DNA of 64,000 nt from Botryllus schlosseri (lineage: Eukaryota): NCBI GenBank assembly GCA_051294905.1, contig CM119373.1, positions 2,048,001-2,112,000 on the forward strand, written 5' to 3'. Positions 8,786 to 55,200 of the stretch are shown here, piece after piece. The notes under the pieces are model-generated. The model was given only the letters and a program-made list of their open reading frames with translations, was not told where the DNA came from and ran no database searches. The position numbers were made by a program, and so were the translations under genes. The stretch's first letter is position 1. Every line of letters begins with the position of its first letter.

Positions 8786-8953
8786 TTGCAAATGCTCGTT
8801 ATCATGGACAATTCAATGAATGAAGATGGATATGAAGTACTCGTTCACATTCTGAAGCGGTCAGATTGCAAGGAATTGCAACTCCAATATTGTTGTCTCA
8901 CCAAGACTAAGTTGCAAGGAGTATTGAACGGATGTCGGGATCAAAATATCCAG
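8786..8953 (+). CDS. Internal coding exon, two RI-like LRRs (LRR exon copy 1), probable NLR-like/LRR gene
   Basis: Acceptor ttttatcattttAG and donor CAG|GTGCGT; 168 nt open in phase 0: LQMLVIMDNSMNEDGYEVLVHILKRSDCKELQLQYCCLTKTKLQGVLNGCRDQNIQ, matching LxxLxIxxNxM and CxxLxLxxCxL. NLR assignment is inference. Confidence 0.8.
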
Positions 8954-11900
8954 GTGCGTCATCATGAAAAATCAGTAATATACAAGAAGACATGTCCCTA
9001 ACGATTCAAAATTGTTCGTCATCCTACATCGCCTCAAAAAGTATGCAGCATAAAATCGTTCACCGTTTATCCTGGCGTTTACCAATACTCGTCTGAGATT
9101 CGAATACCGCAGGCGTTTCGTATTTTGCAACACAGAGAAGCTTGTACATTTTTGAAATAGTTAACGACGCGACAGGGTGGATATTATCAATATTGGAATA
9201 TTCTTGAGACAAATCTAACTGGTGAGGCCGCTTTAGTGTTAGATGATGCGGTTCCATGCACCTGTTGTCGTGGCATGGAATTTGGGAATTCTAGACAAAC
9301 TGTTGCTGATGGAAATGCGGACAATAATTTGCGGCTTTGGTAAGGCGTCCCTGATCTACAGTGAAGTAATCGGCAGAAAAGGGCCAATGTTAAATTTAGG
9401 ATTTCAGGCCGCAAATTGGACACAATTTCATACTTTTAAGTTGCTTATAAATTTGGGTGGAGATAGTTATGTCAATCACTGATTGTCCAATTGGGAGGTC
9501 AAGAAATAACAGCATGCAATAAAAGTGACTAATAACAATTGGCCCACAGCATGATGCATCATTATATATAACTTGCCCCCCCCCCCCCCGGTTCGAAGAT
9601 ACCCCTCGATCAACTCTACTGGTGAATGGGATCACATGGGCTGAGAAAGGATTCATGCTTAATAGGAATATGTGAAACTGTTAACATTAATGACGAAATT
9701 CATTAGTGAATCTGAACAGCTTCTTGGAGCTACATAACTTCAATATCCGATTGAATAGTATATTCATACTGAAATGAACCCGAATATTTTCGGCTGACAC
9801 TCGTTAGGGGTAATCGTCAGCAACTAGTGGAGAATTCAAAAGAACAGCGTATATCAACAATCGTAACACAAAATATGACGTCACCAGCAGCATTAGTGAA
9901 TCTGGAAGTTTTTCGTTCCCATAACGTGACCACTCGCAATTTGGGTGCGTGTAGTAAGCGGATATGAAATAATATAGATAAGTCCGGAGCTCATCGGAAA
10001 TGGACATGGATCCCTCAATATTGGTAGTTGGCGTCCAGCTAGTTCATCGCGACTAAGCCCTGGAATGCTGCCGTAGGCTACATGATTAATCGATATGCAG
10101 CCGTGAATAGTAAAAAGGTTGGCGACCCCTTGGAAATGAATTCCAGCTAAGCTTTTCATTTAAGAGAGCTCGTTTCTCATGCACTTGAAATTCAAATCAT
10201 TCAAACTTTTTTTTATAATGGTGTCGAAGCATATACACTTATACAATCTTCCAGCGATTTCAATACCAATTGACAATATATATCAGTATTTTAATAATCT
10301 GTAATATGTATTGTGCTGCATCCGGAATATTTCGCGATCGGTATTTTTCGTTACATGTCGCTACATCTCTAATCGCAAAACCATGTATTCCAAGGCGCCC
10401 ATTGTAAAATGCCAACATGAAACAAGGTTTTTGTTATCGCTGGCCACAGCGTCAATATGGGTATGCAATGTATTTTTAAGTATGTCGTATTTGACGAGGT
10501 GAAATTGTTCGATTGAAGGTTAACCGAAATAGCAGACTGAGATTCCACAAATATCGTGACATTGTGATTTTCTATTTTTTAGCAATTTATGCGTTGCACG
10601 AATAAAAACCACATTCATGAATATTTGACTAGAACTGTCATTGTACTTGACAGGGAGTACGCGTCATTTGTCAAAATTATGAGAAATAGGCAACATAGCC
10701 GAATCTAGTTTTAAGATATCATATTGATAAGTATAGGCTATTGATTATGTCATTGCCCAAGTCAAAATAAAACAGCGTTGGATTTAACTTCACTGGTGTT
10801 ACAGCGGTGGAGCGTAGCACTACGGTATTCACCCTCTTATATCGGCGATAAAGATATGGATAAAGGGGACAAAGATGAAACTGACTACACATTCAGGGTG
10901 CAATAGAATGATCACTGTTGTTATAACAACTTGCGTCGATAGCGAAATACCGTGTCACGAGCTCAATTCCAATCAGTCGAAGCGGAGTTATTGCCGTCGC
11001 AAAATTTTGGATTTGAATAAAATAGTATTTACGGTGACCGATTCTTTAATCATTTATTATAATTGTGCCCACCGTAAATAGTATTTTATGCAAATCCAAA
11101 TTTGTCGACATCAATCACTACGCTACGGCTGGTTTGAATGGAGCCAAATTTGGTGGACATCGTTTCTATCGACAACCTTACAATTTCATGGGTGAACAGA
11201 AAATTTTGAATTTTTTTTTATCAATTCTGATATAATAAATAAAAAAACTTTCTTCTCCTGTAGCAATGCGGCTACTGGTTGGAATTGAACCAAATTTGGT
11301 GTGTAGGCTTCAATTCGGTAATCTAACAATTTTATCAAGTAGCCAGTAGAATTTGAAAGAAAAAGTCATTTTTGAACACCCCTACTGTACAGTGTACAGA
11401 CATTTGCTATTCCCATGCGCATAAGATGAACTATGATTTGATATTAACGGGTGTGAGTATACACCATGGCACAAGAGACCTGAACGTACCTCATACTTAT
11501 ACCGCGGTATAAATTGAGTGCAATATTTTAATCCAAATTTTGCATGCACGTAGGATATATGACCTCGATCTCATTATGACTCATGTTTTGTTTTCATGTA
11601 CCACCCTTTTCGGCCCCTTAGGTGCAAATACACACTATTTTCGCTAAAAGTGCACTCGAATAAAATATGCATGTTACGCATAAAACGCGTAGTATATTAT
11701 GCCCATTGGAAATCGGTGTCTACTCTACCAGTTGTAAACCCAAATGTACGAACGGGCAGTGCATTCATCGATTCGGTATCTCTAAAATTCCATTGTGAGT
11801 CAACAAACCTGACTGAAATACGAGGTCACTGCAAATTGGTCGATTGTCGCTTCATTGCGAAACATTCATTATTTTCAATGAAACATTCTTTCTTTGACGA

Positions 11901-12957
11901 TATAATCAGTGTTTTTCCAAATCGTAACGACCGTAAAAGCATTTCAGCACTATTACACGCGGCATTTTTCATTTCATCGCCGATATCCACTAATTGCATA
12001 TTAATATGAAATTCGCTAAAATATTCATTTATGCGAATGAGAATCTAGAGTTAGTGATCATTATGCAAAGGTGAATTGCAAGATATGGTCGGAAGTTTCA
12101 TCGCCCTTATTCTTGAATAGGCAACACAACTGTGAGAAGTCCATCCGTCTGAAGTATAATTATGCGGTCGTTTTCACAATAAAATATTTTAAATTGATAA
12201 TAATACAAACATCAAGTCAAGTGTTTAGATGTGCAAATCTGAATTTATTAGCTATGAAAATTCTGTAACCGAAAATATATAAAAAGGAACGATATTTATC
12301 ATGTTCCCAGCTATATTCGGATGAACTCTCGCAACTTTCGTATCTGATATCTTAAATTGGCTCATTAAACAAACGCTCTGTACGAATTCACATTCATATG
12401 ACGATAATCAACATATGCGACTCGTAGCTTACATTGTCGTAAACTTGCTTACCTCAACCAGCCCTCTTGTATATAATTTAAACCAAACGAATATCGTTCA
12501 TACGTTTATAATTGTATATCGTTGATAAGTAGGTGGGTAGGGTATTGAACTATATCAATTTTAAACATTCTGAGGTTTCGTATGTTGTCCTCTATTTTGG
12601 CTGATATTTAAAGACTGGCTACATCGCCATACTTGCGTAGTTGAGCAGTTCTGCGTATGCGTGAGCGATACAGCGCCTCTTCATTCCATTACTCCTCGCC
12701 ACTTAATCCGCGTAAGCCGTGACTTGCGCAAAGTCTAGAAGTGGGCCGTGCTATAAGTCGGCAGTTGACGAATAAATATGAAGAATATTGGCCTGGTGTG
12801 AATGGCCGTAGTAGTTGACAAACACCATGAATATCTCAAAACAAACAAACAAACTATTTATTCGTTCGTCGATTCCGAATAAATGGGTACTTCATCTGTA
12901 TTTAAAACAGTTAGCAAAATGTAATGACTTTGAATCATGTCCAGTACGTTGAAATTT

Positions 12958-13097
12958 CAACTTGACTTGACTAGTGACTTGACTAGTGACTTGACTAGTG
13001 ACTTGACTAGTGACTTGACTCGTGACTTGACTTGACTTGACTTGACTTGACTTGACTTGACTTGACTTGACTTGACTTGACTTGACTTGACTTGACC
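12958..13097. repeat. (CTTGA)n microsatellite with 12-mer TAGTGACTTGAC variant
   Basis: Directly visible; sister copy at ~52009-52051 is much shorter and lacks the 12-mers. Confidence 0.95.
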
Positions 13098-14199
13098 CGA
13101 GTCACCTTTGAAAATCAAGTGACTTGACTTGACTCGAGTCAAAATGAATTGGCAACAAAACGTTTCCATGAATCTCGACGAAGTCACAAAATCAATGTAG
13201 ATACAGGCCAATGGCACACAAAGGCAGACAAACGTTTACAGGGGATCCAAATATAAATAAGCAGTGGGACAGTATTGAATGCTTACACATCGGAATTGAA
13301 TACTATATTGTTCCACATAATTCCATCGTTAATAATTCAACGGTATGAAGTGTATGCTCGAGCAGTATAGCTAACCCGTCGCTTCCACAATTGCATGTCT
13401 TAAATTGATATTTATCCAAACTTCAAGTCAAAAATATGGATGTGCGAACCTGAATCTAGTAGCTATGAAATTCTAAATCCGATATTGATCGAATGAACCC
13501 TGCAAGATTGATATCTGAAATCGGTTCATCAAACAAACGGTATGTGCGAATTCACAATCGTAATATCGAGAATCAACATCTGTGACTTTTCAGTGTCTTC
13601 TGATGGGAGTGCAATTCTTCAAAAAATATCACAAACCATAACGTATTCTTTATTGTAGTCTTACCATAGCGGTACCCTATATAAAAAGATTGATGTGGCA
13701 ATTATACAATTCATTTTTTATGTCGAAACAATAATACACCGTGTCGACCGGCACTGATATCTTAAGCGTTTCGGCGTCGCGTGCATTCTACGTCATGGCA
13801 ATATGCCTATTCATACCAGCTGACTCTCCGTCGATGGAATGCTGATGCCTCCGTTGAAGCTATTTTCGCTATAGCGAGGAATAGTGTTGTTCAGGACAGA
13901 CGAATAAGTTTATTTAAAACTACAACAATAATAATTTGAAACTGAAATCATTTTCGCATTTCAAAATGCTTTATTCGCGTTCTTCCAAATTCACAGATCA
14001 GATCGCCGGCCGCAAAATACAACCTCGCGGGCCGCCTGTTGATGACCCCTGGTGTTGTGCAAAACGAGCAAAGCTTGATATACAGGCGTTAACCAATCTC
14101 TTTGTTATGAGACTCCATTGTGATTTGATATGAACTGAACTTTTTGCTGCATTTATTTCTCATTCAAATTTTCATTCGATTTCCAAGTTTTTCCGAATT

Positions 14200-14820
14200 C
14201 AAATTCTGATGCTAATTATAATCTAATTTGGAAAAAAGCTGTGTAGCTTTAATTCTAATTCTAATCTAATTTGGAAAAATTGTATAGCTCTAATTCTAAT
14301 TCTAATCTAATTTGGAAAAAGCTGTGTAGATGTAATTCTAATTCTATTATAATCTGGAAAAAAGCTGTGTAGATTTAATTCTAATTTTAATTTAATTTGG
14401 AAAATATGCATAGCTCTAATTATAATTCTAATATAATATGGAAAAAGCTGTGTGGATCTAATTCTAATTCTAATCTAATTTGGAAAAAGCTGTGTAGATT
14501 TAATTCTAATTTCAATCTAATTTGGAAAAATTGTATAGCTCAAATTATAATTATAATCTAATTTGGAAAAAGCTGTGTAGATCTAATTCTAATTCTAATC
14601 TAATTTGGAAATAACTGTGTTGATCTAATTCTAATTCTATTCTAATCTGAAAAAAAGCTGTGTAGCTTTATTTCTAATTTGAATCTAATTTGGAAAAATT
14701 GTATAGCTCTAATTATAATTCTAATCTAATTTGGAAAAAGCTGTGTAGATCTAATTCTAATTCTAATCTAATTTGGAAATAACTGTATAGCTCTAATTCT
14801 AATTCTAATATAATTTGTAA
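14200..14820. repeat. 41-42 bp minisatellite (CTAATTCTAATTCTAATCTAATTTGGAAAAAGCTGTGTAGAT), ~15 units
   Basis: Directly visible; shorter arrays at ~5433-5545, ~33490-33600, ~45860-45975, ~53170-53540; related variant at ~4400-4490 and ~32330-32510. Confidence 0.93.
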
Positions 14821-16296
14821 AAGCTTAAAAATTCTTAGTTGTCCAAGTAAGCGGTGTCATATAAAAGCATCAGTGGGCCTTGCAGCAAGTCAGCAGCTAC
14901 GGATTTTAAATGAAGCACATTGGCCAGGTGTAAATGACCATAGTATTCGACAAATCCCAAGATTACCTCAAAACAAACAAACAAGCGACTAAAAAGGGAG
15001 CATAAAAATACGCCAACTTCTATCGTCGTTACTGCCACTGATTTAGCGATCCATAACTGTACTCAACAGGCAAATCATCGCATTTTTGCCAATTTCATTG
15101 TTCGCGAATAAAGTCGTTGCTAGAATATAAACCCTATGATCCGTGATATGTTCTAATGTACTATTATGTATGTATATAATGATAGATAATAAAGTATTCA
15201 AGTGAAAATACGGACATGTGACAAAATCTTTAAATGAGTTGACTGATGGTCCGGCCTGTGAGAGATTTGAAGGTTTGCATCCGACCCGCGTCGCCTTTTC
15301 AGATTCACAATCCTGATCTAAGCTGAATCGCCATGACGAGATAGCATAATGGTATGATCCACGGCTGTAACACCAATTGGTTGCGGGTTCGATGCTGACC
15401 GAGGTCGACTCCAGAATTCCCAGCCAAGTGTTACAGATTTATCTAGGGCTATGCTCCTCTTTATTCACCAGATCAGCGGTAGTGGTTTCTTAAAAAAGCC
15501 TAGAAGTGGATCGTGCTATGAGTGCTCTCAATATTGCAGGCCCTGAGTATCTTCTGCACAGCGATCAATGTATATTTTTATAATTGAATGCCTCTTGGCT
15601 TTGCATTCAGGACAGTTTGTTTTACATGCAATCGAAATTTAAATCATTGGTAAAACAGAGTATATATTGCACACATTGTCTATTATAATATTTGAGATTC
15701 TATATAGTTGCTGAGTGACGTAAAGACCGAGTGAGTGTCTCACTTCGATTTCCCAAAAGTGTTTATGAATACTGGCTGAGTGCCGTAGAAACCCTATAGT
15801 ACTGTCTTTATTGAGTGATCATTAGTAAATTAGTAATCATAAAAACTGCATAACGGTATGCTTTAAAGTTGCCAAACACAGTAGACCTGCCGTCTCCGTG
15901 GATTCAATCGGACAGATTTACTTGCCGACATCCTGATGGCGACCACTTTTTGAAGGAGGAATAGATTGTTGTTATTCCAGTTAACAGAATTCAACGTCGA
16001 AATCAGCCAACACATATTTTACTCAGAGGACCGAGTTTCCAAATAATGTCAGCCAAATAGCTCATAGGTAATTTTACAAATTTCTGTTGTGTTTGAGTGT
16101 ATTCGATCAAATGAAATCTAGAACATTCTACTCGACTCGAAGATCAATTCTCGTTTCGAAATCGTATTTTCCGAGCCCTCGATTTCGCCCAGTCACAGTT
16201 GCAAGATTATGGTATTTTAAAGTCTACTGACAGTAATTTCGATTTCATTTTCGAAGCATAATAAAAGTCATTTTATCCGATATTTGATCATTTTAG

Positions 16297-16464
16297 TTGC
16301 AAAAGCTCGGAATCGTCGACAACTCAATGAAAGAAGATGGATATGAAATACTCGTTCACATTCTGAAGCTCTCAGATTGCAAGGAATTGGTGCTCCAAGA
16401 TTGTTGTCTCACCAACACCAAGTTGCAAGGAGTATTGAACGGATGTCGGGATCAAAATATCCAG
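16297..16464 (+). CDS. LRR exon copy 2 (168 nt, phase 0-0)
   Basis: tcattttAG|TTGCAA ... ATCCAG|GTGCGT; LQKLGIVDNSMKEDGYEILVHILKLSDCKELVLQDCCLTNTKLQGVLNGCRDQNIQ; no stop or indel. Confidence 0.8.
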
Positions 16465-18115
16465 GTGCGTCATCATGAACAATCCGTAATGTCCAATAAG
16501 ACATATCGTCCAACGATTCGAAATTGTTCGTCATCCTACTTCGCCTCTAATCCATGTAACATAAAATCGTTCACCATTTATTCTATCGTTTACCAATACT
16601 CGTCGGAGGTAATTCGAATACCGCAGGGGTTTAGTATTTTGCAACACAGATTACTTTGGACATTTTTAAAATTGTTGACGACGCGACAGCGTAGATATCA
16701 TCAATATAGGAATATTCATGACATAAATCTAGCCGAAAAGGCCGAAAGAGTGATAAAATTAGTTTTTAGGATTTTGGGCCGAAAATTGGGCACACTTTCA
16801 TACTTTTACGTTGCCTATAAATTAGGGTGGATAGAGCTATGTCGATTAATGATTGTCAACTTGGGAGGTCAAGAAATAACAGCATGCAACAAAGTGACTG
16901 ATAAAAATTGGCCCACAGCATGATGCACCATTATGCAAAACTTGCCCTCAGTTTTTGAAGACACCCCTTGATCAACTCTACCGGTGAATGCGATCACGGG
17001 GGCTGGAAAAGAATTAATGTTTGATAGGAATATGTGAAACTATCAACAATAATGACGAAATTCATTAGTGAATCTGAAAGTTTTTCGCACTTCGCGCGAT
17101 CATAACCGTTACCGTAACATGACCAATTGACCACTCGCGATTTCGGTGCCGGTGCGTGTAGTAAGCGAATATGAACTAATAGATAAGTCTGGAGCTCACC
17201 GGAAATGGAGATGAATCTCTTAACATCGGTATTTTGCATCCTGATAGTTCATCGCGACTATGCCATGGAATGTGGCCGCAGGCTACATGATTAATCGTAA
17301 TGCAGCCGTGAATAGGAGAAGGGTTTGCAACCACTGATTTACCCCTTGGAAATGAATTCCAGCTAAGCTTTTCATTCAAGAGAGCTTGATTCTCGTGCAC
17401 TCAAAATTCAAATAATTCATTTTTTTTCATCCCGGTGTTGAAGCATTTACAATTTACCAGCGACGTCTAAACTAGTCGACAATATGCAACAGTGTTTTAA
17501 TAATCTGGAATATGTAGGCTATTGTGCTGCATCCGGAAAATTTCTCGAGCCTTATCTTTCATTACGTGTCGCTATATATCTGGCCGCAAAACCATGTATT
17601 CCATGAAGCTCATTGTAAAATGACAGCATGTAACGAAGTTTATTTAAGCGCTGTTAACGAAACGACCGGTGGACGGTCATATTATCAGTATATATTATAG
17701 GATAATAGCCCACGTTAGAAATCTAACCACCAACGCCGACTGAGTAACGAAAATCAATTTAGTGTTTGATGTTTGACTCAAATGCACTCGGGGGCCAATT
17801 TCCAAATTTTTGACTACCCTGCGGAACACGACGTCAATATGGGTATTCAATGTATGTTCAAGTATGTCGTATTTGACGAGGTGAAATTGTACTATTGGCC
17901 GGAATAGCAGATTGAGATTCCGAAAATATAGTGAACTTATGATTTACTACTTATTTTACCAATTTACGCGTGGCACCAATGAAAACCACATACACAAATA
18001 TTTGACTAAAATTGTCGTTGTACTAGGCAGGGAGTACGCATCATTTGTCGCAATTATGAGAAATAGGCACCATAGCCGAATCTAGGTTTGGGGTACCATA
18101 TTGATAAGTATAGGC

Positions 18116-20108
18116 CAGGGGTAGGCAAACCCCGGCATTCTTTCCATTTGTGCCACGCGAAATGATTTTTCATGGCATGCCAAATGATTTCACGCAAACG
18201 ATATATTCATACCATGTTTTTGCAAAAAGTGAAACAGAAGTTTTCAAAACGTGAAATGCTCGTAAACAATCCAAAATTATTATTATTATTTCCCATTTTA
18301 CAGTGGTGCTTCTCGCCTTTTTCCGGCTATGTGCACCACGACAGGAATATTTGTAATGTTAATAAGTCTTTGCCTTTGTGTTAATCTTGGGGACGACTTC
18401 TTCATTCTTTCGCACATCCAGACGTCAGTCTTTCTCGCACCCATGCGTCCCCGTCGAGGTCTTTGCTGCCGACTTCTAGGACGGCTCACTTTCAATCTGG
18501 GCTTTTCAATGCACTGCAACTGCAGTGAGGTCGGCAATGGGTAGCCCAGAGAAACCTCCGACACATAGAGCCTGATGTGTTAATTATGTTATGGGAACCC
18601 CCAATAAATAGATAAATATATATGCATTTATAAAATGTTATAAAAATCTATGCATAGTGTACAGAAATGAGTCAACCGTATTAGCAGTTGTGAAAGAACG
18701 TCAACCGAATATCGTTTGAAAACGTTTGGATGCTTTAGTCTCGGAGTGTTATTCACTGTGTAGCCTGTGGGATTGCAACTTCTGAACCGGCATTACGACG
18801 CTGGGCATCTTCACGCTATAGAATACACGACCTAGATATAGAGTTTCGGACAACATCCGACCATGCGACTAACAGGCGGTCTATGCGTTGCCAAAATGAT
18901 TGGCGGCGATAAAACCTTGAAACAAAATAGCCGCTGCATCATGGACAAAACGTTAGACATTGATATGTCCACTGGCAAGGCGCCGATGTGACCAGCGCCG
19001 AATTGCCAGCGCCCGCAGCTTGAGCCGCACGGAAGATAATGAGCCCCGTGTCGAAATGCGAATCGTGTTCGTCTCTCGGAAGTAGAGTCTGGTGTGCACG
19101 CGATTCCATATCTTGAGCAACGACAATCTTTACCGTTCGACTGCGACCTTTGCCGACAAATCTAGTGTCAGACCGAACTTATATATATATATCGACTTTT
19201 CAATTAGATAAATAAAAATGAAAAGGGCAAAAGAAAACAGGAAACAAAATACATCAAGATAATCAGTTTTAGGCTCGTATTAAGCGTCTCCAACGTAGGC
19301 GGTCGTGGGCGTCTTCAAGCGACAGCCCGCGTTGCGCTAGGTCAGTCTCCATTGTCGAGCGCCATGTTTTCCGATTCCAGCCACCTCTGCGCCATGGCTC
19401 CGTCGGAATGTAATTGATGATGGCGGCGGCCGGTTGCTCGTCTTGATGCCGCACTAGATGGCCGATCAGGCGGAAGCGTCGTTCAGCTGCCAGTAGACGG
19501 CATGGGACCGTTCCTGTGAACTCTCGCAATGCATTCGTGGATATATGCTCCGGATGGTGAATGCCGAGTGCATAGCGGAGGAGTGCGTCATAGTTAGCGT
19601 TGAGCGTCTTAGCCAGCTTCTCTGTCAGCGTGAGTGCCTCTTCAGCGTGAGTGCCGTGAGACCGAACTTAATGTGACACCAAACCGATTTGAATGAGACT
19701 GTGGGGAGGGGGGAAACACTTTTCATCATCATCAGACCATATCATCGTAGCTACACTGATTGACCCGCCACTTACTGTATATGGTAACAAACATAGTGGA
19801 CTTGGAAACGATCCAATCAACCGCAGAAGATCGATCATTGCCCAATGGCGCGAAAAAAAATAAATTATGTAAATGTCGCGTAGGCCTACATATAAGCGAT
19901 AGGTCGGGTGCGGTAGTGTCCAAAATTCAATCCCTTCAAGACCAATCAAGAATTGCCGGCGTGACGAATGGCGTTGCCAGGTTGGTGGTATTCCTTGCTG
20001 CTTGAAACGTTAAATAATAATAAATTCAATGTTTGGCACGGAAACTAGTAAAAAATTGACATTTTTTGACATTTTGGCACGCTGCACATAAAAGGTTGCC
20101 GGCACCTG
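18116..20108. mobile_element. Non-autonomous hAT element carrying an RTE insertion
   Basis: Termini CAGGGGTAGGCAAACC / GGTTGCCGGCACCTG; TSD gtataggc / gtataagc; empty site gtataggc at 10731-10738. Confidence 0.88.
19182..19658 (-). mobile_element. 5'-truncated RTE-clade LINE
   Basis: Minus-strand frame LLRYALGIHHPEHISTNAL...RRFRLIGHLVR...WRRGG.NRKTW..TMETDL...AHDRLRWRRLI* resembles the RTE ORF C-terminus; (TA)n tail; 12-bp TSD AGACCGAACTTA (19170-19181, 19659-19670); empty site 39638-39649. Confidence 0.92.
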
Positions 20109-20439
20109 GTATAAGCTATTGATCTTGTCATTGCCCAAGTCAAAATAAAACAGCGTTGGATTTCACTTTACTGGTGTCACAGCGGTGGAGCGTGCCGCTG
20201 CGGTATTTGCCATCTTTAATCGGCTATAAAGCTATGGAATAAGGCAGTGGTTCTCAACCTTTTTGACTTCGCGGCACACTTTGAAAATGAAAAATAGTTC
20301 GCGGCACACTAGCACAGTGATTCTGAACTCTTTTGGCTTACGGCGCAGGCAAACTAACAGATTGCGTATAGCAGCAACCATATAGTCATACAGAGTTGGT
20401 CATGGTCACTGACGAAGTACTTCTACCTTTTTGGAACAC

Positions 20440-20640
20440 TCAAATAGGCTTTTCTCTGCTTGAGTTTTCTTTTATCTCTGCGGACATCTCTAAAATACGT
20501 CTTCGAATGGTATCATTTGACATGGGAATCGTTTTCGATTCTTCCCGAACATTTTTTACAATTTTATTGCAAGTTGGAAGAAGAACTTTCTCCGCTTCCG
20601 TGTGAGGTTTTGAATTATCAGCTATTACCTCTGTTACCAA
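20440..20640 (-). pseudogene. Buster/Charlie-like hAT transposase remnant
   Basis: KPHTEAEKVLLP...IPMSNDTIRRRILEMS matches the family motif KPHTIAE.LI.P...IPLS..TV.RRI..MS. Confidence 0.85.
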
Positions 20641-21788
20641 GAATACTAAAAAATAATGTCATCACTTCGGATTTTTTGTGCACAACTTACAATTTCTGTG
20701 CGCAGACCCGTGTCAGCACTGCGCGTCTGCGCACTTACACAGCTTGGAGGAACGTTGGTTACCACAAAACTGTCCCGCTGAGATCTCGTTTAAACTTCAG
20801 GTTGAGCTTAATTTCAACAGATTGGATTGACAATAAAGCCTGCCCATTACCGCATTGTCGATGTAATTAACCGTCGCATCGAAGAGTCCAATCACGATCG
20901 CCACTAACAAATACAGAGACGTAGAGGTGTATTATACATGGATGCCAAACGCATTTCCACGCAGATCGTGTAATAGCATCTGTGAGGATAATATACCTCA
21001 ATAGTGTTACTAGCACCCACCCGCAATTCAATTGTAGTTCCAACAAACCGGGATAATAAACCTCAGCGGCGGGGAAATTTGTAACTGATATAATTTGATC
21101 AAATTTACTTCTCCATTTTAGAATTTGTCGCCTGCAACATAACGTTGCACCCTGAGCCTACATTTCACCTGCAGTGCAAGCACGCTACCTAACAATCTCA
21201 ATATGAATGACTATGTTGGAAATTCTAATTGGTAAACGTGAACATCACTTCCACATAAATTCATTTCTCGATGGTGAGAATGCCTTCCTAGGTGTTTGGG
21301 GTTTATGTACGCTCCTGCTCGTCCTCCGATCTTCAAAATCAGGGTCTCACAAGAAGTGGGCCGGGCTATGAGTTGGCATCTCAGGAATCAAAATAATAAG
21401 TAATATCGGTATGGTGTAAAATGATCATCGACATGGCAAGAATACGACTACAAATAGAAACAGAAAAATGTCATCAACCTGCGTCATGTCCCTGTTCTGC
21501 CTCCGGTTCTGATGGGGGTGACGAGTAAAAGGTGAACACTTCGGCCACACGTCAATATCATAGTCCAATTGCCCGAGTTTAGTTATTCCCGTCCTAAATG
21601 CTACTATATGTGGGTAAACTAGCGTATCACACCCATTGACGGTGGAGGCCCCAGTTTGATTCATGGCAGTACAGTAGCAAGTTACGAAGCGTCGCAGATT
21701 TGTGAGATTCTCCGACACTATACGTTGCTGTGCTCAGAGCGTCTTTACAATAAAAAGCCCTGAGAAAGACCCAATCCATGACCTAATG

Positions 21789-27079: not shown

Positions 27080-27160
27080 CGAGGCTGCTAACCGTAGTTC
27101 TTCAGAATGATGTTCTGTATTCAATGTAGCATGTGCGTGCAATCTATGAGATAACAATTG

Positions 27161-43285: not shown

Positions 43286-46200
43286 ATCTAAGGTTTTAGT
43301 GGTCCGAAACCTAGTGAATCATGAAAATAAGTCTGGTGCCCCCCTATTTTAAGGGTGTAGTAAAACCCCAATGTGTAAGTGGTCGAAGTCCGCCTTCCGG
43401 TTAGGAATTCACTATTAGACCACTCGACTGATCAAGGGTATAATTTTTTTTGCTGTTTTCGGGATCAAATCCAGGTTGTTATAACAACCATCGGGTAAAA
43501 ACTACGGGCTCATAGCATTTGGTTCGAGATCGATGGACACATCTCGAATTCTCCTCTACGATTGCCAATACGGTGAATAAAGTTGTATTCGTTTCGTTTT
43601 ATTGCTTTGTGTGACCACTTAATCAGCTGAGAATGTTGTAGAGACTTGCTCACGTTACATTTAGCGCTGCTATTAAATTCAACATGAATGCGGGTAACAA
43701 CACTCAGCAGTATCATCCTTTATGATACGATTACGAAATATTCTGACGACATAATTTTGTAGCTCTCAAATACAAGTATATTTAGTTACTCGTTTTTGCC
43801 AGAAAGCTGCAAAACACCTTTAATGTACAAATGACATCACTCTCGAAAGTTGATCAGTAGCGTTTAGCGCCTTTGCGATTTAGGCACGCAGTGCGCATCA
43901 GGATAAAATACCTAGTCAAAAATATTTTATGTAAAACAACCCGAGCTATCAGTATAAGTATCAATTTATTAATATTTTCATCATTTCAAAACACCACAAA
44001 ACTTCGATACCATGAAAGGATAGGAAGATGTCAAAACTACTTGGAGTATAGCTAGCGTGACGGGGTTGTTATGAAGGGGAATAAGCAATCCAAAAGTACC
44101 CCAAATTCATTTTACATGATTTAAAATAAACCACTGCATTCATGGTATCATGAGTCGGTGGATATTTCGCGATGAGCGCGACTAAAAACGTTGTGATTTA
44201 ACAGATTTTGTCGAATGTTAGTTTGCAATGAGAAACCAGGAACAATCATATGTCCTTACTACACCATCTGCTGCGAGACCATTTTCTTCAGCGCCTCAAC
44301 CGCGTCCAGAGCCAAGTGCCCTCTATTTCGCCCCCTGAGCGTTTCCGCCCCTTCAAAATCCAAGTGGCTCCCTGGGAGGCGCTGGAGACAAGGTTAAGAA
44401 CCACTGATCTAAATCATCACGAACTATATTGGTAAAATTACGTCTCCTCCAGCTTCATAAACTGCTCATCTTCGACAGTACAATGCTCCCGGACGCATAG
44501 AAGAGTAGCGTACGACCAGTGTTGCTGATTATAAATTCTGTAGACGGAATTGGGCTCTGAGCTGTCGTAAGAAGTCGTCAGAAACAACATATACAAATGC
44601 GCGTGGTCGTGTTCGTGTGGTTTTTGCGCTATCACGAAGCAACTAACGATCCAGATTAAACGTTTAAATTCTAATCTTTTCCAAGTCTATATCATGGTAT
44701 CATGCTCAATCTTCTAGAATGATAGATACTTTTGTACTCAGCGCTTCTTCGGAAATTGTTTCAATCATCACACCCATCTCTGATCTGAACATATAAAGTG
44801 TCATCACCATGTTTGCATCTGCTTTAACAATAATCGAATTTTTGAATTGTTCTTATGCTCTAATTTTAATTCCAATCTAATTCATGAATTGTTCTTATGC
44901 TCTAATTCTAATCTAATTTATTGTTTTCCTGAAAATGCCTATTTGACCGCGGCATGTTGCAGCGAGTCCATCTCGCAAAGGGATATCCAGAGTCAAGCCG
45001 CAATTGCATTACTTACACCGTACAGAAATAGTAGTTGTTGTGCGACGAATAATAGCCATACTGGAACAATTGTGACGCTTATCGCCGAATCATGTTATTT
45101 GTGCCATGAAAATGAATGTTGCAATGTTCATTGATCTTTGCCTTTGGAACTCTTTTTGGACTACTTCCAGTCACGTATCTATTCATCATATATCTATCTC
45201 GTTTGCATACGACCTCTTCAGTGTCTTTTGCTGACGATTTTCGAAGCTCGAGTTCAATTATTTAAACTGGGCTTTTCGTACGGCACTGCATACGCAGTGA
45301 GTTCAGCTACTAACGATTCGATATTAGGGCTATCCAGACATGTTGCTAGGTGAAAGACTATCTCATCCTAAAGATTGGCTTTGGGGACGCCCTATAGCCC
45401 TAGTTTTCCAAGCGCCTCGGTGTCGAGTGCACTGTACGTCATGGCAATATCCCTATTCATGCCAGCTGACTCATCATCGATGGAATGCTGTTGCCTTCGT
45501 TGAAGCTATTTCCGCTATAGCGAGGAATAGTGTTGTTGAGGACAGACGAATAGGTTTATTTAATACAACAACAATAATTATTTGAAACTGAAATCAATTT
45601 TCGCATTTCAAAATGCTTTATTCGCGTTCTTCCAAATTCATAGATCAGATCGCCAGCCGCAAAATACGACTTCGCGGGCCGCCTATTGATGACCCGGGTA
45701 TAGTGCAAAACGAGCGAAGCTTGATATACAGACGTTAACCAATCTCTTTGTTATGAGACTCCACTGTGGTTTGATATGAACTGAACTTTTTGCTGTATTT
45801 ATTTCTCATTCAGAATTTCATTCGATTTCCAAGTAGTTTTTCCGAATTCAGTAGCCAAATTCTAATTGTAAGTATAATCTAATTTGAAAATAACTGTGTT
45901 AATCTAATTCTAATTGTGATCTAATTTGAAAAAAATTGTATAGCTCTAATTATAATTCTAATCTAATTCGGAAATGCTAAAAATTTTCTAGTTGTCCTAG
46001 TCTGCCGCGTAAGTGGCGTCTTATAAAAGCTTATGAGTGGGCCGTGCTGCAGGTATTGTTTGTTTGTTTGTTTTGGGGTATTCATGGTGTTTGTCGACTA
46101 CGATGGTCATTTACACCAGGCCGACATTCTTTTTATTTTCCGTAACTGCCGACTTATAGCACGGCTCACCTCTAGGCTTTTGTAAGACACCGCTGACGCG

Positions 46201-47189
46201 GATGAGGTGGCGAGGAGGAGCCTAGGTAAACCTCCAACACTTGGGTATCGAGATTCCCGTGCTGCAGGTCAGCAGCTACGAAATTTAAATGAAGCACATT
46301 GGCCTGGTGTAAATGACCATAGTAGTCGACAAACCCCATGAATACCTCAAATAAAACAAACAAGCGACTAGAAAGGGAGCATAGAAATACGTCAACTGAT
46401 ATCGTCGTTAGTGCCACTGATTTAGCGCTCCATAACTGTACTCAACAGGCAAATCATCACAATTTTGCCAATTCCATTGTTCGCGAATAAATTCGTTGCT
46501 AGAATATAAACCTTATGATCCGTGATATGATTTAATGTACTATTATGTATATATGATTGATAATAAAGTATTAAAGTGAAAATACGGACATGTGGCAAAA
46601 CTTTGAAACGAGTTGACAGATGGTCGGGCCCGTGAGAAATTTGAAGATTTTAATCCTACCCGAGTAGCCATTTGAGTTTGACAACCGTTCTCTAAGCTTA
46701 ATTGCGATGACGAGATAGCATAATGGTATGATCCACGGCTGCAACACCAATTGGTTGCGGGTTCGAGTCTGACAGAGGTCGCCTCCAGAATTCCCAGCCA
46801 AGTGTTAGAGGTTTATATAGGGCTAGGCTCCTCTTCATTCACCAGATCGGCGCTAGCGATTTCTTAAAAAAGGCTAGAAGTGGATTTTGCTATGAGTGCT
46901 CTCAATATTGCAGGCCCTGAGTATTTTTCTGCACAGCGATCAATGTATATTTTTAAAGTTAGATGCCTCTTGGCTCTGCATTCAGAACAAGTCGTTTTAC
47001 ATGCAATCTAAATTCAAATCATTGGTAAAACGGAGTATATATCGCACGACATTAAAAGCTGGCGATTTCGTCTATTATAACATTTGAGATCGACCGAGAC
47101 CGAGTGTTTCATTTCGATTTCCCAGAAGTGTTTATGAATACGGGCTGGGCACCGTTTAAACCCTAATATTGTCGTTATCGAGTGATCAC

Positions 47190-47510
47190 ATATTAAAATG
47201 GCTATCCGGACCACATATTAAAATGCTCCATCTCTAGGGTATTGAAAAAATCGGATACAGGTCCAAAATATGGCCCAGAAAAATGCCCGCCATTTTTGCC
47301 CCTACCTTGGCTAGGTAACGTGTCTAGCCGTTTTGAAAAGCTTATTAAATCGGCTGTTCACCGTTGCTATTACAGCGTTAACACGCATGCAGTGTACACG
47401 ACGAAACCCTTGTTACCCAACTCTCGAAAATATGTACTTCCTGCCTTTGATGCAAGTAATGTTGTTTACCAATACAAGTACCACTGTGATAGTAGGTATG
47501 TAGGATGTAC
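47190..47510 (+). mobile_element. Duplicate Penelope-like fragment truncated by a deletion
   Basis: Matches 6757-7077, then joins directly to the equivalent of 9928. Confidence 0.9.
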
Positions 47511-48776
47511 GACCACTCGCAATTTGGGTGCGTGTAGTAAGCGGATATGAAATAATATAGATAAGTCCGGAGCTCATCGGAAATGGACATGGATCTCTCA
47601 ATATTGGTAGTTGGCGTCCAGCTAGTTCATCGCGACTAAGCTCTGGAATGCTGCCGTAGGCTACATGATTAATCGATATGCAGCCGTGAATAGTAAAAAG
47701 GTTGGCGACCCCTTGGAAATGAATTCCAGCTAAGCTTTTCATTTAAGAGAGCTCGTTTCTCATGCACTTGAAATTAAAATCATTCAAACTTTTTTTTTAT
47801 AATGGTGTCGAAGCATATACACTTATACAATCTTCCAGCGATTTCAATACCAATTGACAATATATACCAGTATTTTAATAATCTGTAATATGTATTGTGC
47901 TGCATCCGGAATATTTCGCGATCGGTATTTTTCGTTACATGTCGCTACATCTCTAATCGCAAAACCATGTATTTCAAGGCGCCATTGTAAAATGCCAACA
48001 TGTAACAAGGTTTTTGTTATCGCTGGTAACGAAACGACCGGCGAACGGTCATATTATCAATATCTATTATAGGATAATAACTCATGGTATAAATCTAGCC
48101 GACTGAGTGAAGAAAATCGATTTAGTGTTTGATGCTTGACTCATATGTACTCGGGATCCAATTTCCTAGTTTTTGATCACCCCGCTGGCCACAGCGTCAA
48201 TATGGGTATGCAATGTATTTTTAAGTATGTCGTATTTGACGAGGTGAAATTGTTCGATTGAAGGTTAACCGAAATAGCAGACTGAGATTCCACAAATATC
48301 GTGACATTGTGATTTACTATTTTTTAGCAATTTATGCGTTGCACGAATAAAAACCACATTCATAAATATTTGACTAGAACTGTCATTGTACTTGACAGGG
48401 AGTACGCATCATTTGTCAAAATTATAAGAAATAGGCAACATAGCCGAATCTAGTTTTAAGATATCATATTGATAAGTATAGGCTATTGATTATGTCATTG
48501 CCCAAGTCAAAATAAAACAGCGTTGGATTTAACTTCACTGGTGTTACAGCGGTGGAGCGTAGCACTACGGTATTCACCCTCTTAAATCGGCGATAAAGAT
48601 ATGGATAAAGGGGTCAAAGATGAAACTGACTACACATTCAGGGTGCAATAGAATGCTCACTGTTGTTATAACAATTTGCGTCGATAGCGAAATACCGTGT
48701 CACGAGCTCAATTCCAGTCAGTCGAAGCGGAGTTATTGCCGTCGCAAAATTTTGGATTTGAATAAAATAGTATTTA

Positions 48777-50076
48777 CGATTACCAGAGAACCCGTCCCTT
48801 GGGGAACCCGTCCCTACCAACTCGGCCCTCGGAGAACCCGGCCCTTGGAGAACCCGGCCCTCGGGAAATTTTGCATATCAAGCACTCGTGGTCTACTTGT
48901 TGTCGTATTTACGGTGTTTTTCGACTACTCTGGACCTCGGAGAATGCGGCCCGCGAATAATTTTGTATTAAAAATGCATTAAATGTGAAGCCGGCCCTCG
49001 GGAAATATTGTATTCACCGGCAACCCTAATATCCCACCTCCACCAACCCTAATATCCCACCCCCGGCAACCCTAATATCCTAACCCTAACCCTAATATCC
49101 TCCCCCAACCCTAATATCCCCCTCCCCCAACCCTAATATCCCCCTCCCCCAACCCTAATATCCCACCTCCGGCAACCCTAATATCCCACCTCCACCAACC
49201 CTAATATCCCACCCCCGGCAACCCTAATATCCTAACCCTAAAGCTAATATCCCCCCCCCTACCCTAATATCCCCCTCCCCCAACCCTAATATCCCACCTC
49301 CGGCAACCCTAATATCCCACCCCCGGCAACCCTAATATCCCACCCCCGGCAACCCTAATATCCCCCTCCCCCAACCCTAATATCCCACCTCCGGCAACCC
49401 TAATATCCCACCCCCGGCAACCCTAATATCCCACCCCCGGCAACCCTAATATCCTAACCCTAACCCCAATATCCTCCCCCAACCCTAATATCCCCCTCCC
49501 CCAACCCTAATATCCCACCTCCGGCAACCCTAATATCCCACCTCCACCAACCCTAATATCCCACCCCGGCAACCCTAATATCCCACCCCCGGCAACCCTA
49601 ATATCCCACCCCCGGCAACCCTAATATCCCACCCCGGCAACCCTAATATCCCATCCCCGGCAACCCTAATATCCCATCCCCGGCAACCCTAATATCCCAC
49701 GCATGCCCTGACCTCCTTACAAGACCGACAAATCAGTTGATAATAACATTATTACTTTATTAATTCATATTAATACTTGTGAATACACTTAATTTCTAAA
49801 TTTCCCGAGGAATATTACTTTTCATTCAGTGTGCATGCCTCTTATTTACTTCGCCTAGGCTAAGGTGGGTGTCTGATCTTAATGGCTACTCCAAGTTGTT
49901 TCGACACCCTCCTATCTTTTCATTGTATCGCAGTCTTGTGATGTTTTGAAACGATGAAAATATTAATAAACCTGACTGACTGACTTCACCGAGGGCCGGG
50001 TTCTCCAAGGGCCGGGTTCTCCGAGGGCCGAGTTGGTAGGGACGGGTTCTCCAAGGGACGGGTTCTCCGGCAACCG
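48777..50076. mobile_element. Unclassified TIR element with 6-bp TSD and internal minisatellite
   Basis: ~90-bp TIRs CG(A/G)TT(A/G)CC(A/G)GAGAACCCGTCCCTTGG built of ~17-bp subrepeats; TSD TATTTA (48771-48776, 50077-50082); empty site 11026-11031. Confidence 0.9.
49016..49700. repeat. ~19-21 bp C-rich minisatellite (CCCCGGCAACCCTAATATCCCA) with telomere-like AACCCTAA core
   Basis: Directly visible, >30 units, including TAACCCTAACCCTAA at ~49081. Confidence 0.95.
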
Positions 50077-53000
50077 TATTTACGGTGACCGATTCTTTAA
50101 TCATTTATTACAATTGTGCCCACCGTAAATACTATTTTATGCAAATCCAAATTTGTCGACATCAATCACTACGCTACGGCTGGTTTGAATGGAGCCAAAT
50201 TTGGTGGACATCGTTTCTATCGACAACCTTACAATTTCATGGGTGAACAGAAAATTTTGAATTTTTTTTTATTAATTTTTATATAATAAATAAAAAAACT
50301 TTCTTCTCCTGTAGCAATGCGGCTACTGGTTGGAATTGAACCAAATTTGGTGTGTAGGCTTCAATTCGGTAATCTAACAATTGTATCAAGTAGCCAGTAG
50401 AATTTGAAAGAAAAAGTCATTTTTGAACACCCCTACTGTACAGTGTACAGACATTTGCTATTCCCATGCGCATAAGATGAACTATGATTTGATATTAACG
50501 GGTGTGAGTATACACCATGGCACAAGAGACCTGAACGTACCTCATACTTATACCGCGGTATAAATCGAGTGCAATATTTTAATCCAAATTTTGCATGCAC
50601 GTAGGATATATGACCTCGATCTCATTATGACTCAGGTTTTGTTTTCATGTACCACCCTTTTCGGCCCCTTAGGTGCAAATACACACTATTTTCGCTAAAA
50701 GTGCACTCGAATAAAATATGCATGTTACGCATAAAACGCGTAGTATATTATGCCCATTAGAAATCGGTGTCTACTCTACAAGTTGTAAACCCAAATGTAC
50801 GAACGGGCAGTGCATTCATCGATTCGATATCTCTAAAATTCCATTGTGAGTCAACAAACCTGACTAAAATACGAGGTCACTGCAAATTGGTCGATTGTCG
50901 CTTCATTGCGAAACATTCATTATTTTCAATGAAACATTCTTTCTTTGACGATATAATCAGTGTTTTTCCAAATCGTAACGACCGTAAAAGCATTTCAGCA
51001 CTATTACACGCGGCATTTTTCATTTCATCGCCAATATCCACTAATTGCATATTAATATGAAATTCGCTAAAATATTCATTTATGCGAATGAGAATCTAGA
51101 GTTAGTGATCATTATGCAAAGGTGAATTGCAAAATATGGTCGGAAGTTTCATCGCCCTTATTCTTGAATAGGCAACACAACTGTGAGAAGTCCATCCGTC
51201 TGAAGTATAATTATGCGGTCGTTTTCACAATAAAATATTTTAAATTGATAATAATACAAACATCAAGTCAAGTGTTTAGATGTGCAAATCTGAATTTATT
51301 AGCTATGAAAATTGTGTAACCGAAAATATATAAAAAGGAACGATATTTATCATGTTCCCAGCTATATTCGGATGAACTCTCGCAACTTTCGTATCTGATA
51401 TCTTAAATTGGCTCATTAAACAAACGCTCTGTACGAATTCACATTCATATGACGATAATCAACATATGCGACTCGTAGCTTACATTGTCGTAAACTTGCT
51501 TACCTCAACTAGCCCTCTTGTATATAATATAAATCAAACGAATATCGTTCATACGTTTATAATTGTATATCGTTGATAAGTAGGTGGGTAGGGTATTGAA
51601 CTATATCAATTTTAAACATTCTGAGGTTTCGTTTGTTGTCCTCTATTTGGCTGATATTTAAAGACTGGCTACATCGCCATACTTGCGTAGTTGAGCAGTT
51701 CTGCGTATGCGTGAGCGATACAGCGCCTCTTCATTCCATTACTCCTCGCCACTTAATCCGCGTAAGCCGTGACTTGCGCAAAGTCCAGAAGTGGGCCGTG
51801 CTATAAGTCGGCAGTTGACGAATAAATATGAAGAATATTGGCCTGGTGTGAATGGCCGTAGTAGTTGACAAACACCATGAATATCTCAAAACAAACAAAC
51901 AAACTATTTATTCGTTCGTCGATTCCGAATAAATGGATACTTCATCTGTATTTAAAACAGTTAGCAAAATGTAATGACTTTGAATCATGTCCAGTACGTT
52001 GAAATTTCAACTTGACTTGACTTGACTTGACTTGACTTGACTTGACTTGACCCGAGTCACCTTTGAAAATCAAGTGACTTGACTTGACTCGAGTCAAAAT
52101 GAATTGGCAACAAAACGTTTCCATGAATCTCGACGAAGTCACAAAATCAATGTAAATACAGGCCAATGGCACACAAAGGCAGACAAACGTTTACAGGGGA
52201 TCCAAATATAAATAAGCAGTGGGACAGTATTGAATGCTTACACATCGGAATTGTATACTATATTGTTCCACATAATTCCATCGTTAATAATTCAACGGTA
52301 TGAAGTGTATGCTCGAGCAGTATAGCTAACCCGTCGCTTCCACAATTGCATGTCTTAAATTGATATTTATCCAAACTTCAAGTCAAAAATATGGATGTGC
52401 GAACCTGAATCTAGTAGCTATGAAATTGATCGAATGAACCCTGCAAGATTGATATCTGAAATCGGTTCATCAAACAAACGGTATGTGCGAATTCACAATC
52501 GTAATATAGAGAATCAACATCTGTGACTTTTCAGTGTCTTCTGATGGGAGTGCAATTCTTCAAAAAATATCACAAACCATAACGTATTCTTTATTGCAGT
52601 CTTACCATAGCGGTACCCTATATAAAAAGATTGATGTGGCAATTATACAATTCATTTTTTATGTCGAAACAATAATACACCGTGTCGACCGGCACTGATA
52701 TCTTAATGTCTAATATAATGAAAATCGAAACCACTAAGAATAATATTGTTAAAATTTCGTCTCCACCAGCTTCAGAAACTGCCCATCTTCGACAGTACAC
52801 TACTCCCGGGTTCTTATTATGACGTGGCGGAAATTGCAAAAGCCACCAAATGCGCCGAAGTGTGTGTACCGAACCCAATTCCAACGTCCACGTTTACGGT
52901 TTAATCTCTTGTATTCTTACCAACGCACACTCGGGGTCAACATCCAGTGACGACTAAAAAGAGTGGTGGGATAGCATAGTGGTGTAATCCACTGCTGCAA

Positions 53001-55032
53001 CACCTATGGGTTACTGGTGCGAGTGCGAACAATTTCGACTCTAGAATTCCTAATTAAGCGTTGGAGGTTTAGCTAGGCTCCTCCTCGCCATCTCATACGC
53101 GTAACAGACTTGGACAACTAGATAATTCTAGTTGTCTAATTTCACTAAATTAGAGCGAAATAGCAGTAATCGAATTCTAATCTAATTTATAAAATTTTTC
53201 TATGCTCCAATTCTAATTCTAATTCTGATTCTAATCTAAATTGAGAAACGTTCTTATACTCTAATTATAATTATAATCTAATTTGGAAAAAGCTGTGTAG
53301 ATCTAATTCTAATTCTAATCTAATTTGGAAATAACTGTGTTGATCTAATTCTAATTCTATTCTAATCTGAAAAAAAGCTGTGTAGCTTTATTTCTAATTT
53401 GAATCTAATTTGGAAAAATTGTATAGCTCTAATTATAATTCTAATCTAATTTGGAAAAAGCTGTGTAGATCTAATTCTAATTCTAATCTAATTTGGAAAT
53501 AACTGTATAGCTCTAATTCTAATTCTAATATAATTTGTAAAAGCTTAAAAATTCTTAGTTGTTCAAGTAAGCGGGGTCATATAAAAGCATGAGTGGGCCT
53601 TGCAGCAAGTCAGCAGCTACGGATTTTAAATGAAGCACATTGGCCCGGAGTAAATGACCATAGTATTCGACAAATCCCAAGATTACCTCAAAACAAACAA
53701 ACAAGCGACTAAAAAGGGAGCATAAAAATACGCCAACTTCTATCGTCGTTACTGCCACTGATTTAGCGATCCATAACTGTACTCAACAGGCAAATCATCG
53801 CATTTTTGCCAATTTCATTGTTCGCGAATAAAGTCGTTGCTAGAATATAAACCCTATGATCCGTGATATGTTCTAATGTACTATTATGTATGTATATAAT
53901 GATAGATAATAAAGTATTCAAGTGAAAATACGGACATGTGACAAAATCTTGAAATGAGTTGACTGATGGTCCGGCCTGTGAGAGATTTGAAGGTTTGCAT
54001 CCGACCCGCGTCGCCTTTTCAGATTCACAATCCTGCTCTAAGCTGAATCGCCATGACGAGATAGCATAATGGTATGATCCACGGCTGTAACACCAATTGG
54101 TTGCGGGTTCGATGCTGACCGAGGTCGACTCCAGAATTCCCAGCCAAGTGTTACAGATTTATCTAGGGCTATGCTCCTCTTTATTCACCAGATCAGCGGT
54201 AGTGGTTTCTTAAAAAAGCCTAGAAGTGGATCGTGTTATGAGTGCTCTCAATATTGCAGGCCCTGAGTATCTTCTGCACAGCGATCAATGTATATTTTTA
54301 TAATTGAATGCCTCTTGGCTTTGCATTCAGGACAGTTTGTTTTACATGCAATCGAAATTTAAATCATTGGTAAAACAGAGTATATATTGCACGACATTAA
54401 TATTGCACACATTGTCTATTATAATATTTGAGATTCTATATAGTTGCTGAGTGACGTAAAGACCGAGTGAGTGTCTCACTTCGATTTCCCAAAAGTGTTT
54501 ATGAATACTGGCTGAGTGCCGTAGAAACCCTATAGTACTGTCTTTATTGAGTGATCATTAGTAAATTAGTAATCATAAAAACTGCATAACGGTATGCTTT
54601 AAAGTTGCCAAACACAGTAGACCTGCCGTCTCAGTGGATTCAATCGGACAGATTTACTTGCCGACATCCTGATGGCGACCACTTTTTGAAGGAGGAATAG
54701 ATTGCTATTATTCCAGTTAACAGAATTCAACGTCGAAATCAGCCAACACATATTTTACTCAGAGGACCGAGTTTCCAAATAATGTCAGCCAAATAGCTCA
54801 TAGGTAATTTTACAAATTTCTGTTGTGTTAGAGTGTATTCGATCAAATGAAATCTAGAACATTCTACTCGACTCGAAGATCAATTCTCGTTTCGAAATCG
54901 TATCTTCCGAGCCCTCGATTTCGCCCAGTCACAGTTGCAAGATTATGGTATTTTGAAGTCTACTGACAGTAATTTCGATTTCATTTTCGAAGCATAATAA
55001 AATTCATTTTATCCGATATTTGATCATTTTAG

Positions 55033-55200
55033 TTGCAAAAGCTCGGAATCGTCGACAACTCAATGAAAGAAGATGGATATGAAATACTCGTTCACATTCT
55101 GAAGCTGTCAGATTGCAAGGAATTGGTGCTCGAAGATTGTTGTCTAACCAAGACTAAGTTGCAAGGAGTGTTGAACGGATGTCGGGATCAAAATATCCAG
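55033..55200 (+). CDS. LRR exon copy 4 (168 nt, phase 0-0)
   Basis: tcattttAG|TTGCAA ... ATCCAG|GTGCGT; LQKLGIVDNSMKEDGYEILVHILKLSDCKELVLEDCCLTKTKLQGVLNGCRDQNIQ. Confidence 0.8.

Follow-up and report, generated by a model that had tools for sequence, protein, structure and literature searches.

The 64,000-nucleotide (nt) stretch of Botryllus schlosseri DNA analysed here (hereafter the window; C3:2,048,001-2,112,000, on contig CM119373.1 of a 495.5-Mb assembly) carries four copies of a 168-nt exon predicted to encode a pair of leucine-rich repeats (LRRs). The window is probably part of the interior of a giant NACHT-LRR gene (gene 3 of three tandem paralogues at C3:1.42-2.15 Mb), whose exon array would change by recombination while selection acts on the concave face of its product. 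The 5' module of gene 3 would consist of a NACHT exon and an HD2-like exon, and its LRR domain of 15 near-identical, symmetric phase-0 exons of 168 nt, each encoding two ribonuclease-inhibitor (RI)-type LRRs. Unequal crossing-over or gene conversion, acting on exon-plus-intron units within the gene and between the three genes alike, would have enlarged the array and would still be changing it. Selection would keep the splice sites and the LRR framework and favour change at seven beta-strand positions of the concave face. Head-to-tail splicing would yield a solenoid of ~30 LRRs with this face as the ligand-binding surface, and the symmetry of the exons would let their number change in frame.

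LRR exons in three predicted tandem NLR genes

The four exon copies of the window (w1 to w4, Table 1) were recovered by a repeat finder as one family with spacings of 7511, 21287 and 17449 nt. A pyrimidine-rich tract that closes with ttttag leads into every copy, and gtgcgtcatcat (also GTGCGTCATCAT) comes directly after each; a joint between two spliced exons would read AATATCCAG and then TTGCAA. Alignment and translation revealed no stops and no indels in any of the four. Frames 1 and 2 contain one to five stops each in all 27 genomic copies described below and frame 0 alone is open; the exon is thus in phase 0-0. The flanking DNA aligns at ~80-87% and contains indels, including a 51-nt gap 80 nt upstream of the exon in copies 2 and 4, and the homology of copy 3 is lost 25 nt past the donor site. 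A preliminary description of the window, made from its letters, had claimed four plus-strand 168-nt exons in phase 0-0 with intact AG/GT sites and neither stops nor indels, set in DNA full of indels and insertions; the exons were confirmed in every respect by alignment, translation and the frame check, and the surroundings are indeed gapped, with a satellite and a transposon inserted in one repeat unit (U1).

A genome-wide DNA search with the exon gave 35 candidates, all of which were scored. Twenty-seven lie within C3:1,487,493-2,152,554, all on the plus strand, 25 of them at least 89% identical in nucleotide sequence to w2 and two at 80-83%. An AG acceptor and a GTGCGT donor flank every one of the 27, all are free of stops, and one in-frame 6-nt deletion is the sole indel. 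The two oldest copies (C3:1,487,510 and 1,551,675) share just the exon and 17 nt on either side with the others.

The same region contains three intact NACHT exons, all on the plus strand (C3:1,422,156, 1,696,722 and 1,929,385), with open frames of 391-483 amino acids. The first matches the Pfam NACHT family (PF05729, E 1e-14), and the second and third are 77% and 85% identical to it in amino acid sequence. There are likewise exactly three HD2-like exons (1,435,740, 1,715,579 and 1,935,798; all 30 search candidates scored). These exons therefore delimit three predicted tandem NLR genes with 5, 7 and 15 array exons, and the window lies inside the third. Gene 3 spans at least 223 kb (C3:1,929,385-2,152,554). 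Its NACHT exon (C3:1,929,385-1,930,530) lies 118 kb upstream of the window with no NACHT copy between, its HD2-like exon occupies 1,935,798-1,936,151, and its array exons, of which the window holds numbers 10 to 13, are 4.4-30.7 kb apart. The pieces of gene 1 follow the order of the Styela clava protein XP_039248824.1, matching residues 64-384, 383-439 and 413-545 in turn and after them the LRRs. Colinear exon order on one strand is the one observation that would place the NACHT and LRR parts on a single transcript and protein. Outside the window, C3:1.60-2.048 Mb and the DNA beyond 2.112 Mb were mapped by search coordinates and 3.2-kb exon loci.

With 27 LRR exons against three NACHT and three HD2-like exons, and no other NLR-like coding sequence in the window, the duplicated unit is an exon plus an intron and not a gene, as the preliminary description had proposed. 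The upstream NACHT exon and further exon copies for which it advised a search were found: there are three NACHT exons and, with the four of the window, 27 array exons. Its suggestion of one very large LRR gene remodelled by unequal crossover holds for the recombination between units; the single gene gives way to three in tandem. A separate gene per unit was rejected, since neither NACHT nor HD2-like exons are copied with the units. Capture of the exon by a transposon was also rejected, given that all 27 copies share a strand and a single region and that their variation is position-specific.

No effector domain (CARD, PYD, Death or TIR) was detected in C3:1.40-1.60 Mb among the 83 scanned of 151 open reading frames (ORFs) of at least 95 amino acids, a scan that short exons would escape; it returned NACHT and transposon-type domains and nothing else. 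A passage in a review describes ascidian NLRs as lacking the N-terminal domain (PMC11508797).

Elsewhere on C3, members of the same NACHT clade (6.03-6.37 and 7.18-7.24 Mb) are compact, their LRR exons being 0.6-3.3 kb apart. Another locus of this subfamily, again spread out, occupies C3:33,012,265-33,427,746 on the minus strand, with two NACHT, two HD2-like and three array-type LRR exons, the last 116-172 kb apart. The 404-amino-acid NACHT exon clade of the array locus has ~27 members of at least 47% identity, on C1, C3, C5, C9, C12 and C15. Genome-wide, 224 NACHT candidates were counted at first look; all 94 that were scored exceeded the Pfam cut-off, mostly as intact exons of ~500 amino acids.

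Table 1. Repeat units, LRR exons and recombination-related segments, in window positions
Feature	Position	Strand	Description and basis
Repeat unit U0	1..17340	+	Cut by window start; carries w1 and w2; self-BLAST
2.85-kb segment with exon w1	7078..9927	+	In U0, missing from U2 with exact breakpoints (between 47510 and 47511)
LRR exon w1	8786..8953	+	168 nt, 56 amino acids, two RI-type LRRs (predicted); ttttag acceptor, gtgcgt donor, no stop
LRR exon w2	16297..16464	+	Alignment, translation; phmmer best E 7e-25 to NACHT-LRR proteins
Intron segment ~300 nt downstream of exon	16765..17801	+	97-98% identical among copies; upstream intron of those copies 81-86%
Repeat unit U1	17341..37777	+	Older copy, 75-94% identical to U2; satellite and transposon inserted; w3 at end
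LRR exon w3	37584..37751	+	Alignment, translation; homology to other copies stops at U1/U2 boundary
Repeat unit U2	37778..56236	+	18,459 nt; carries w4; self-BLAST
LRR exon w4	55033..55200	+	Alignment, translation; 97% identical to w2 over 221 nt
Repeat unit U3	56237..64000	+	Cut by window end; self-BLAST

Predicted product and use of the exons

A phmmer search of 1.84 billion representative proteins gave 19 matches at E <= 0.001, and domain scans of 12 of these relatives identified NACHT in two and LRR families in five. The top two matches are Styela clava proteins, XP_039248824.1 (2508 amino acids, E 7e-25) and XP_077976009.1 (1383 amino acids, E 2e-19). Both have NACHT and NOD2_WH domains and, after them, ~20-30 units that closely resemble one another and recur every 56/112 amino acids; the two proteins are computed gene models and just 23-25% identical to the exon over all matched stretches. 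The best hits are thus of the NACHT-LRR type, where a non-LRR or transposon protein would have spoken against the initial assignment to an RI-type LRR exon of the NLR family. That assignment also drew support from a profile of 24 exon peptides, which aligned both LxxLxLxx(N/C) motifs to ribonuclease inhibitor (E 0.048), followed by NLRP14 (E 0.44), and from the topology of an AlphaFold model built on the exon alignment, with beta strands at residues 3-6 and 30-33, alpha helices at 13-25 and 40-47, and a predicted local distance difference test score (pLDDT) of 66.5. From these comparisons, the prediction that the exon encodes two RI-type LRRs of the NLR family is sound.

In the gene models of three relatives (P0001, P0002 and P0010), 56-amino-acid units are joined in the same register as the exon ends; head-to-tail splicing of the array exons would therefore give a continuous solenoid. 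The exons might instead be spliced as alternatives to one another or in changing subsets, through exon skipping or mutually exclusive choice, each gene then producing many receptor isoforms from its RNA. All 27 exons are symmetric and in phase 0, so that any subset stays in frame; they carry 24 distinct signatures at their hypervariable positions, and skipping would be helped by the 4-31 kb introns that separate identical splice sites. The ~20-30 units carried in series by the relatives' gene models, however, are a precedent for serial use. Alternative use of the exons is judged unlikely, and less likely than a serial solenoid.

Exchange or recent duplication of exon-plus-intron units

Self-BLAST divides the window into four units (U0 to U3, Table 1). 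Positions 37778-45538 (U2) match 56237-64000 (U3) at 98.4% with an offset of 18,459 nt, and U0 matches U2 at 99% (1-7077 against 41779-47510) and at 97-98% (9928-16774 against 47511-55509). Around the 2.85-kb segment with w1, U0 and U2 are otherwise 98-99% identical; judged from this alignment, the segment is an exon gain or loss between units. Its exon-bearing arrangement recurs at C3:1,812,555 and C3:2,033,583, and the w1 locus is 99.4% identical over 3165 nt to the former, a unit of gene 2.

The closest relative lies in another gene for 13 of the 27 units, at up to 99.4% identity. Given their 77% and 85% identity to the gene 1 copy, we infer that the NACHT exons of genes 2 and 3 differ from each other at 8% or more of their amino acids. 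Units so much more alike than the NACHT exons of their genes have thus been recently exchanged or duplicated. In addition, the identity of 97-98% downstream of the exon against 81-86% upstream (Table 1) indicates a mosaic or recombination breakpoint inside the intron. Together, the identity between genes, the intron mosaic and the exon-bearing difference between U0 and U2 argue for recent recombination with breakpoints inside introns; these comparisons support exchange, or recent block duplication, between the genes.

Two array exons of gene 2 (C3:1,797,675 and 1,798,569) are just 894 nt apart, against 4-31 kb elsewhere, which may reflect local intron collapse.

Variation and selection

Variation among the 27 exons is concentrated at codon positions 3, 5, 7, 30, 32, 34 and 35, each of which shows 6-7 different residues; the signature of w1 at these positions is M-V-M / E-Q-Q-Y. 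At 29 of the 56 positions, one residue is common to 26 or 27 of the 27 copies. The mean column identity over 24 exon peptides is 88%, and the internal repeats are thus at least ~85% alike. In a test kept apart from the seven codons, the ten x positions of the two beta-strand motifs (2, 3, 5, 7, 8, 29, 30, 32, 34 and 35), fixed before the data were seen, accounted for 14.47 of 25.81 bits of entropy, which none of 200,000 random ten-position sets matched.

Expressed as all-pairs averages, which are not phylogenetically independent, the proportions of nonsynonymous (pN) and synonymous (pS) differences are 0.38 and 0.27 in the seven hypervariable codons, which were picked after the data had been seen, and 0.041 and 0.111 in the other 49 codons, the framework. 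The p-distance of the intron flanks is 0.186. These pairwise counts and the entropy permutation, made with no codon model, are opposite to what neutral decay would produce and fit purifying selection on the fold and splice signals combined with diversifying selection on the concave face. The pattern also suits the suggestion, made when the exons were first described, of a candidate system for receptor diversification.

Weight of the evidence

Several results count against the proposal of a giant, recombining NACHT-LRR gene. The ribonuclease inhibitor match is weak and the pLDDT is just 66.5; Pfam LRR models gave no match to the exon-bearing ORFs among 148 ORFs scanned; and the pN and pS values carry the limits stated with them. 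A word-indexed search of a collection of 5.8 billion proteins found no protein sharing words with the exon, in its sets of longer or of similar-length proteins; no public gene model therefore uses these exons. The HD2-like match of gene 3 includes two stops; since the frame is open there for 126 amino acids, they are read here as belonging to an intron at the margin of the match. A 3' terminal exon was looked for with the tail of the Styela protein and not found, the one match (E 2.03) being on another contig, and genes 2 and 3 outside the window were for the most part placed by search coordinates, not read. Lastly, RNA data give no sign of the exons. Window positions 1-20000 were compared with two contig sets and two raw RNA-seq runs, X16 (~6% read) and X17 (~13% read), and in both runs depth was 0 on the three bins with w1 and w2 (8005-9338, 16009-16675); transposon bins were covered. 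Since sampling was shallow and the tissues are unknown, this is weak evidence against expression.

None of the sequence sets listed as containing the exon is on record as RNA. A 198-nt contig from set X1, whose kind ('RNA?') is a guess, matches 16333-16462 with three mismatches and ends 2 nt before the donor site; it has 68 further letters that do not fit the window. Because the side on which these letters lie is not told, the contig was not counted as evidence of splicing.

The absence of reads on the exons in two subsampled runs, of public proteins containing them and of a terminal exon, together with the 97-99% identity of many units, would also suit an array that is a mere by-product of segmental duplication, no longer part of a transcribed, working receptor, with exons intact because they are young. 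Such a relic is, however, very unlikely: copies at 80-83% identity still have an open frame and both splice sites although their introns can no longer be aligned, the framework pN is 4.5 times below intron divergence, and the variation falls at predicted ligand-contact positions. Neutral decay thus accounts for neither the conserved framework nor the contact-position variation.

Least probable of all is that some neighbours of 97-99% identity (U0, U2 and U3) are haplotypes placed in tandem by the assembly and that the array really has fewer copies: heterozygosity in ascidian genomes can reach the percent level and U2 and U3 are exactly tandem at 98.4%, but the contexts of U0, U2 and U3 differ, U1 lies between U0 and U2, the units differ by the 2.85-kb exon-bearing segment and a 1.3-kb insertion, and most of the 27 copies differ by 7-20%, so that even the extreme case removes just a few copies.

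Other content of the window

The longest ORF of the window has 202 amino acids. Of 257 stop-to-stop ORFs of at least 60 amino acids, the 148 of at least 72 were scanned against Pfam, and four had matches at E <= 0.01: two DDE_Tnp_4 remnants (35328-35770), and SMEK_N and DUF4758, both below cut-offs. In tblastn searches with 19 related proteins and the window's own ORF P0020, the four exons were matched and nothing else. Both searches bear out the earlier statement that the exon is the sole recognisable host coding sequence in the repeat unit. ARAGORN and Rfam detected no tRNA and no Rfam family. When the window was scanned against gene 1 for conservation islands that might mark a second exon type, islands of 92-99% came up everywhere; the mosaic relatedness of the sequences kept the scan from discriminating. 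An open frame of 199-208 amino acids running from w2 and w4 into the intron was rejected as an exon extension, its coding not being conserved across copies.

The 202-amino-acid frame (6764-7369, also 47197-47547) has no Pfam match and begins precisely at the point where a truncated copy, lacking the exon, of the upstream intron segment (6092-6764) ends; its middle may resemble the GIY-YIG nuclease of Penelope-like retroelements. In U1 only, a degraded PIF/Harbinger transposase (DDE_Tnp_4, 54.8 bits) lies in two frames at 34667-35770. U1 also contains a 163-base-pair (bp) satellite, with 12 copies of ~90% identity (25122-27068) followed by 4.3 copies in the opposite orientation (27161-27853), the two blocks together forming a large inverted arrangement.

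A C-rich 23-bp minisatellite of ~31 copies at 49017-49700 contains the word CCCTAA and is absent at the homologous place in U0; it accounts for the strong GC skew (-0.34) of the bin at 48-50 kb. Three units share a 42-bp AT-rich minisatellite at equivalent places, ~1.5-2 kb before the exon (14205-14822, 32331-32512 and 53218-53545, with 14.7, 4.3 and 7.8 copies).

The RNA comparison drew attention to other short elements. In X16, hundreds of reads fall on a stretch of ~74 nt (13023-13096), with joints recorded as 'goes back 70/74' and 134 molecule starts at 13096; the pattern suggests a small transcribed element of the intron that is tandemly repeated or abundant. Two further stretches, 18411-18569 and 9770-9889, show very high read or contig depth with many loose ends (up to 457 reads in X17) and are probably copies of abundant short interspersed elements.

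Comparison with known systems and significance

The proposed gene resembles animal NLRs such as the mammalian NLRP and zebrafish NLR-C families, in which a NACHT exon and helical-domain exons are followed by symmetric exons each with a pair of RI-type LRRs; LRR exons of mammalian NLRP genes are 171 nt long. It differs from them in its 15 near-identical exons, each in its own duplicated intron unit of 4-31 kb, in its length of at least 223 kb and in the confinement of variation to seven positions.

In mechanism, the array most resembles the repeats of the fungal HET-E/HET-D/NWD genes. Passages in two papers on these NACHT receptors describe repeats with ~85% mutual identity that move within and between paralogues through unequal crossing-over or conversion; the repeats evolve in concert, and a few of their surface positions, next to conserved ones, are under positive selection (PMC1805685, PMC4986451). 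High internal repeat identity and an excess of amino acid change at a few surface positions are both found here. The fungal repeats, however, are of the WD40, ANK or TPR type and contiguous in one exon, whereas here they are LRRs, and each repeat pair is an exon of its own, many kilobases from the next. Moreover, allorecognition by HET-E/NWD proteins has been shown experimentally, whereas the present array is known from sequence alone.

Banks of similar cassettes that give variable binding surfaces are also known from lamprey VLR and Drosophila Dscam1. The LRR cassettes of VLR lack splice sites and are copied somatically into the gene, and the alternative exons of Dscam1 are Ig-domain exons with mutually exclusive use; every cassette here, in contrast, has both splice sites. 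No paper on such LRR arrays in tunicate NLRs was found in the full-text literature, with subscription journals outside its coverage.

It is tempting, if rather doubtful, to go further and regard this chordate NLR locus as a diversification system of the germline and possibly of RNA. In it, ~27 cassettes with 24 contact signatures, shuffled by unequal recombination among three giant genes and, thanks to their symmetry, perhaps spliced in variable subsets, would furnish individual-specific receptor surfaces for the recognition of non-self or pathogens, an animal LRR counterpart of fungal HET-E/NWD.

Animal NLRs are usually seen as sensors of invariant ligands whose diversity comes from gene number. 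In the array proposed here, diversity would lie within the gene, in near-identical LRR exons that differ at predicted contact residues and are exchanged between paralogues, the same logic as in fungal allorecognition NLRs and plant resistance genes. The locus would show exon-plus-intron duplication inflating a 20-kb gene to more than 200 kb, and it would offer a concrete place in which to see how an invertebrate chordate diversifies its intracellular receptors.

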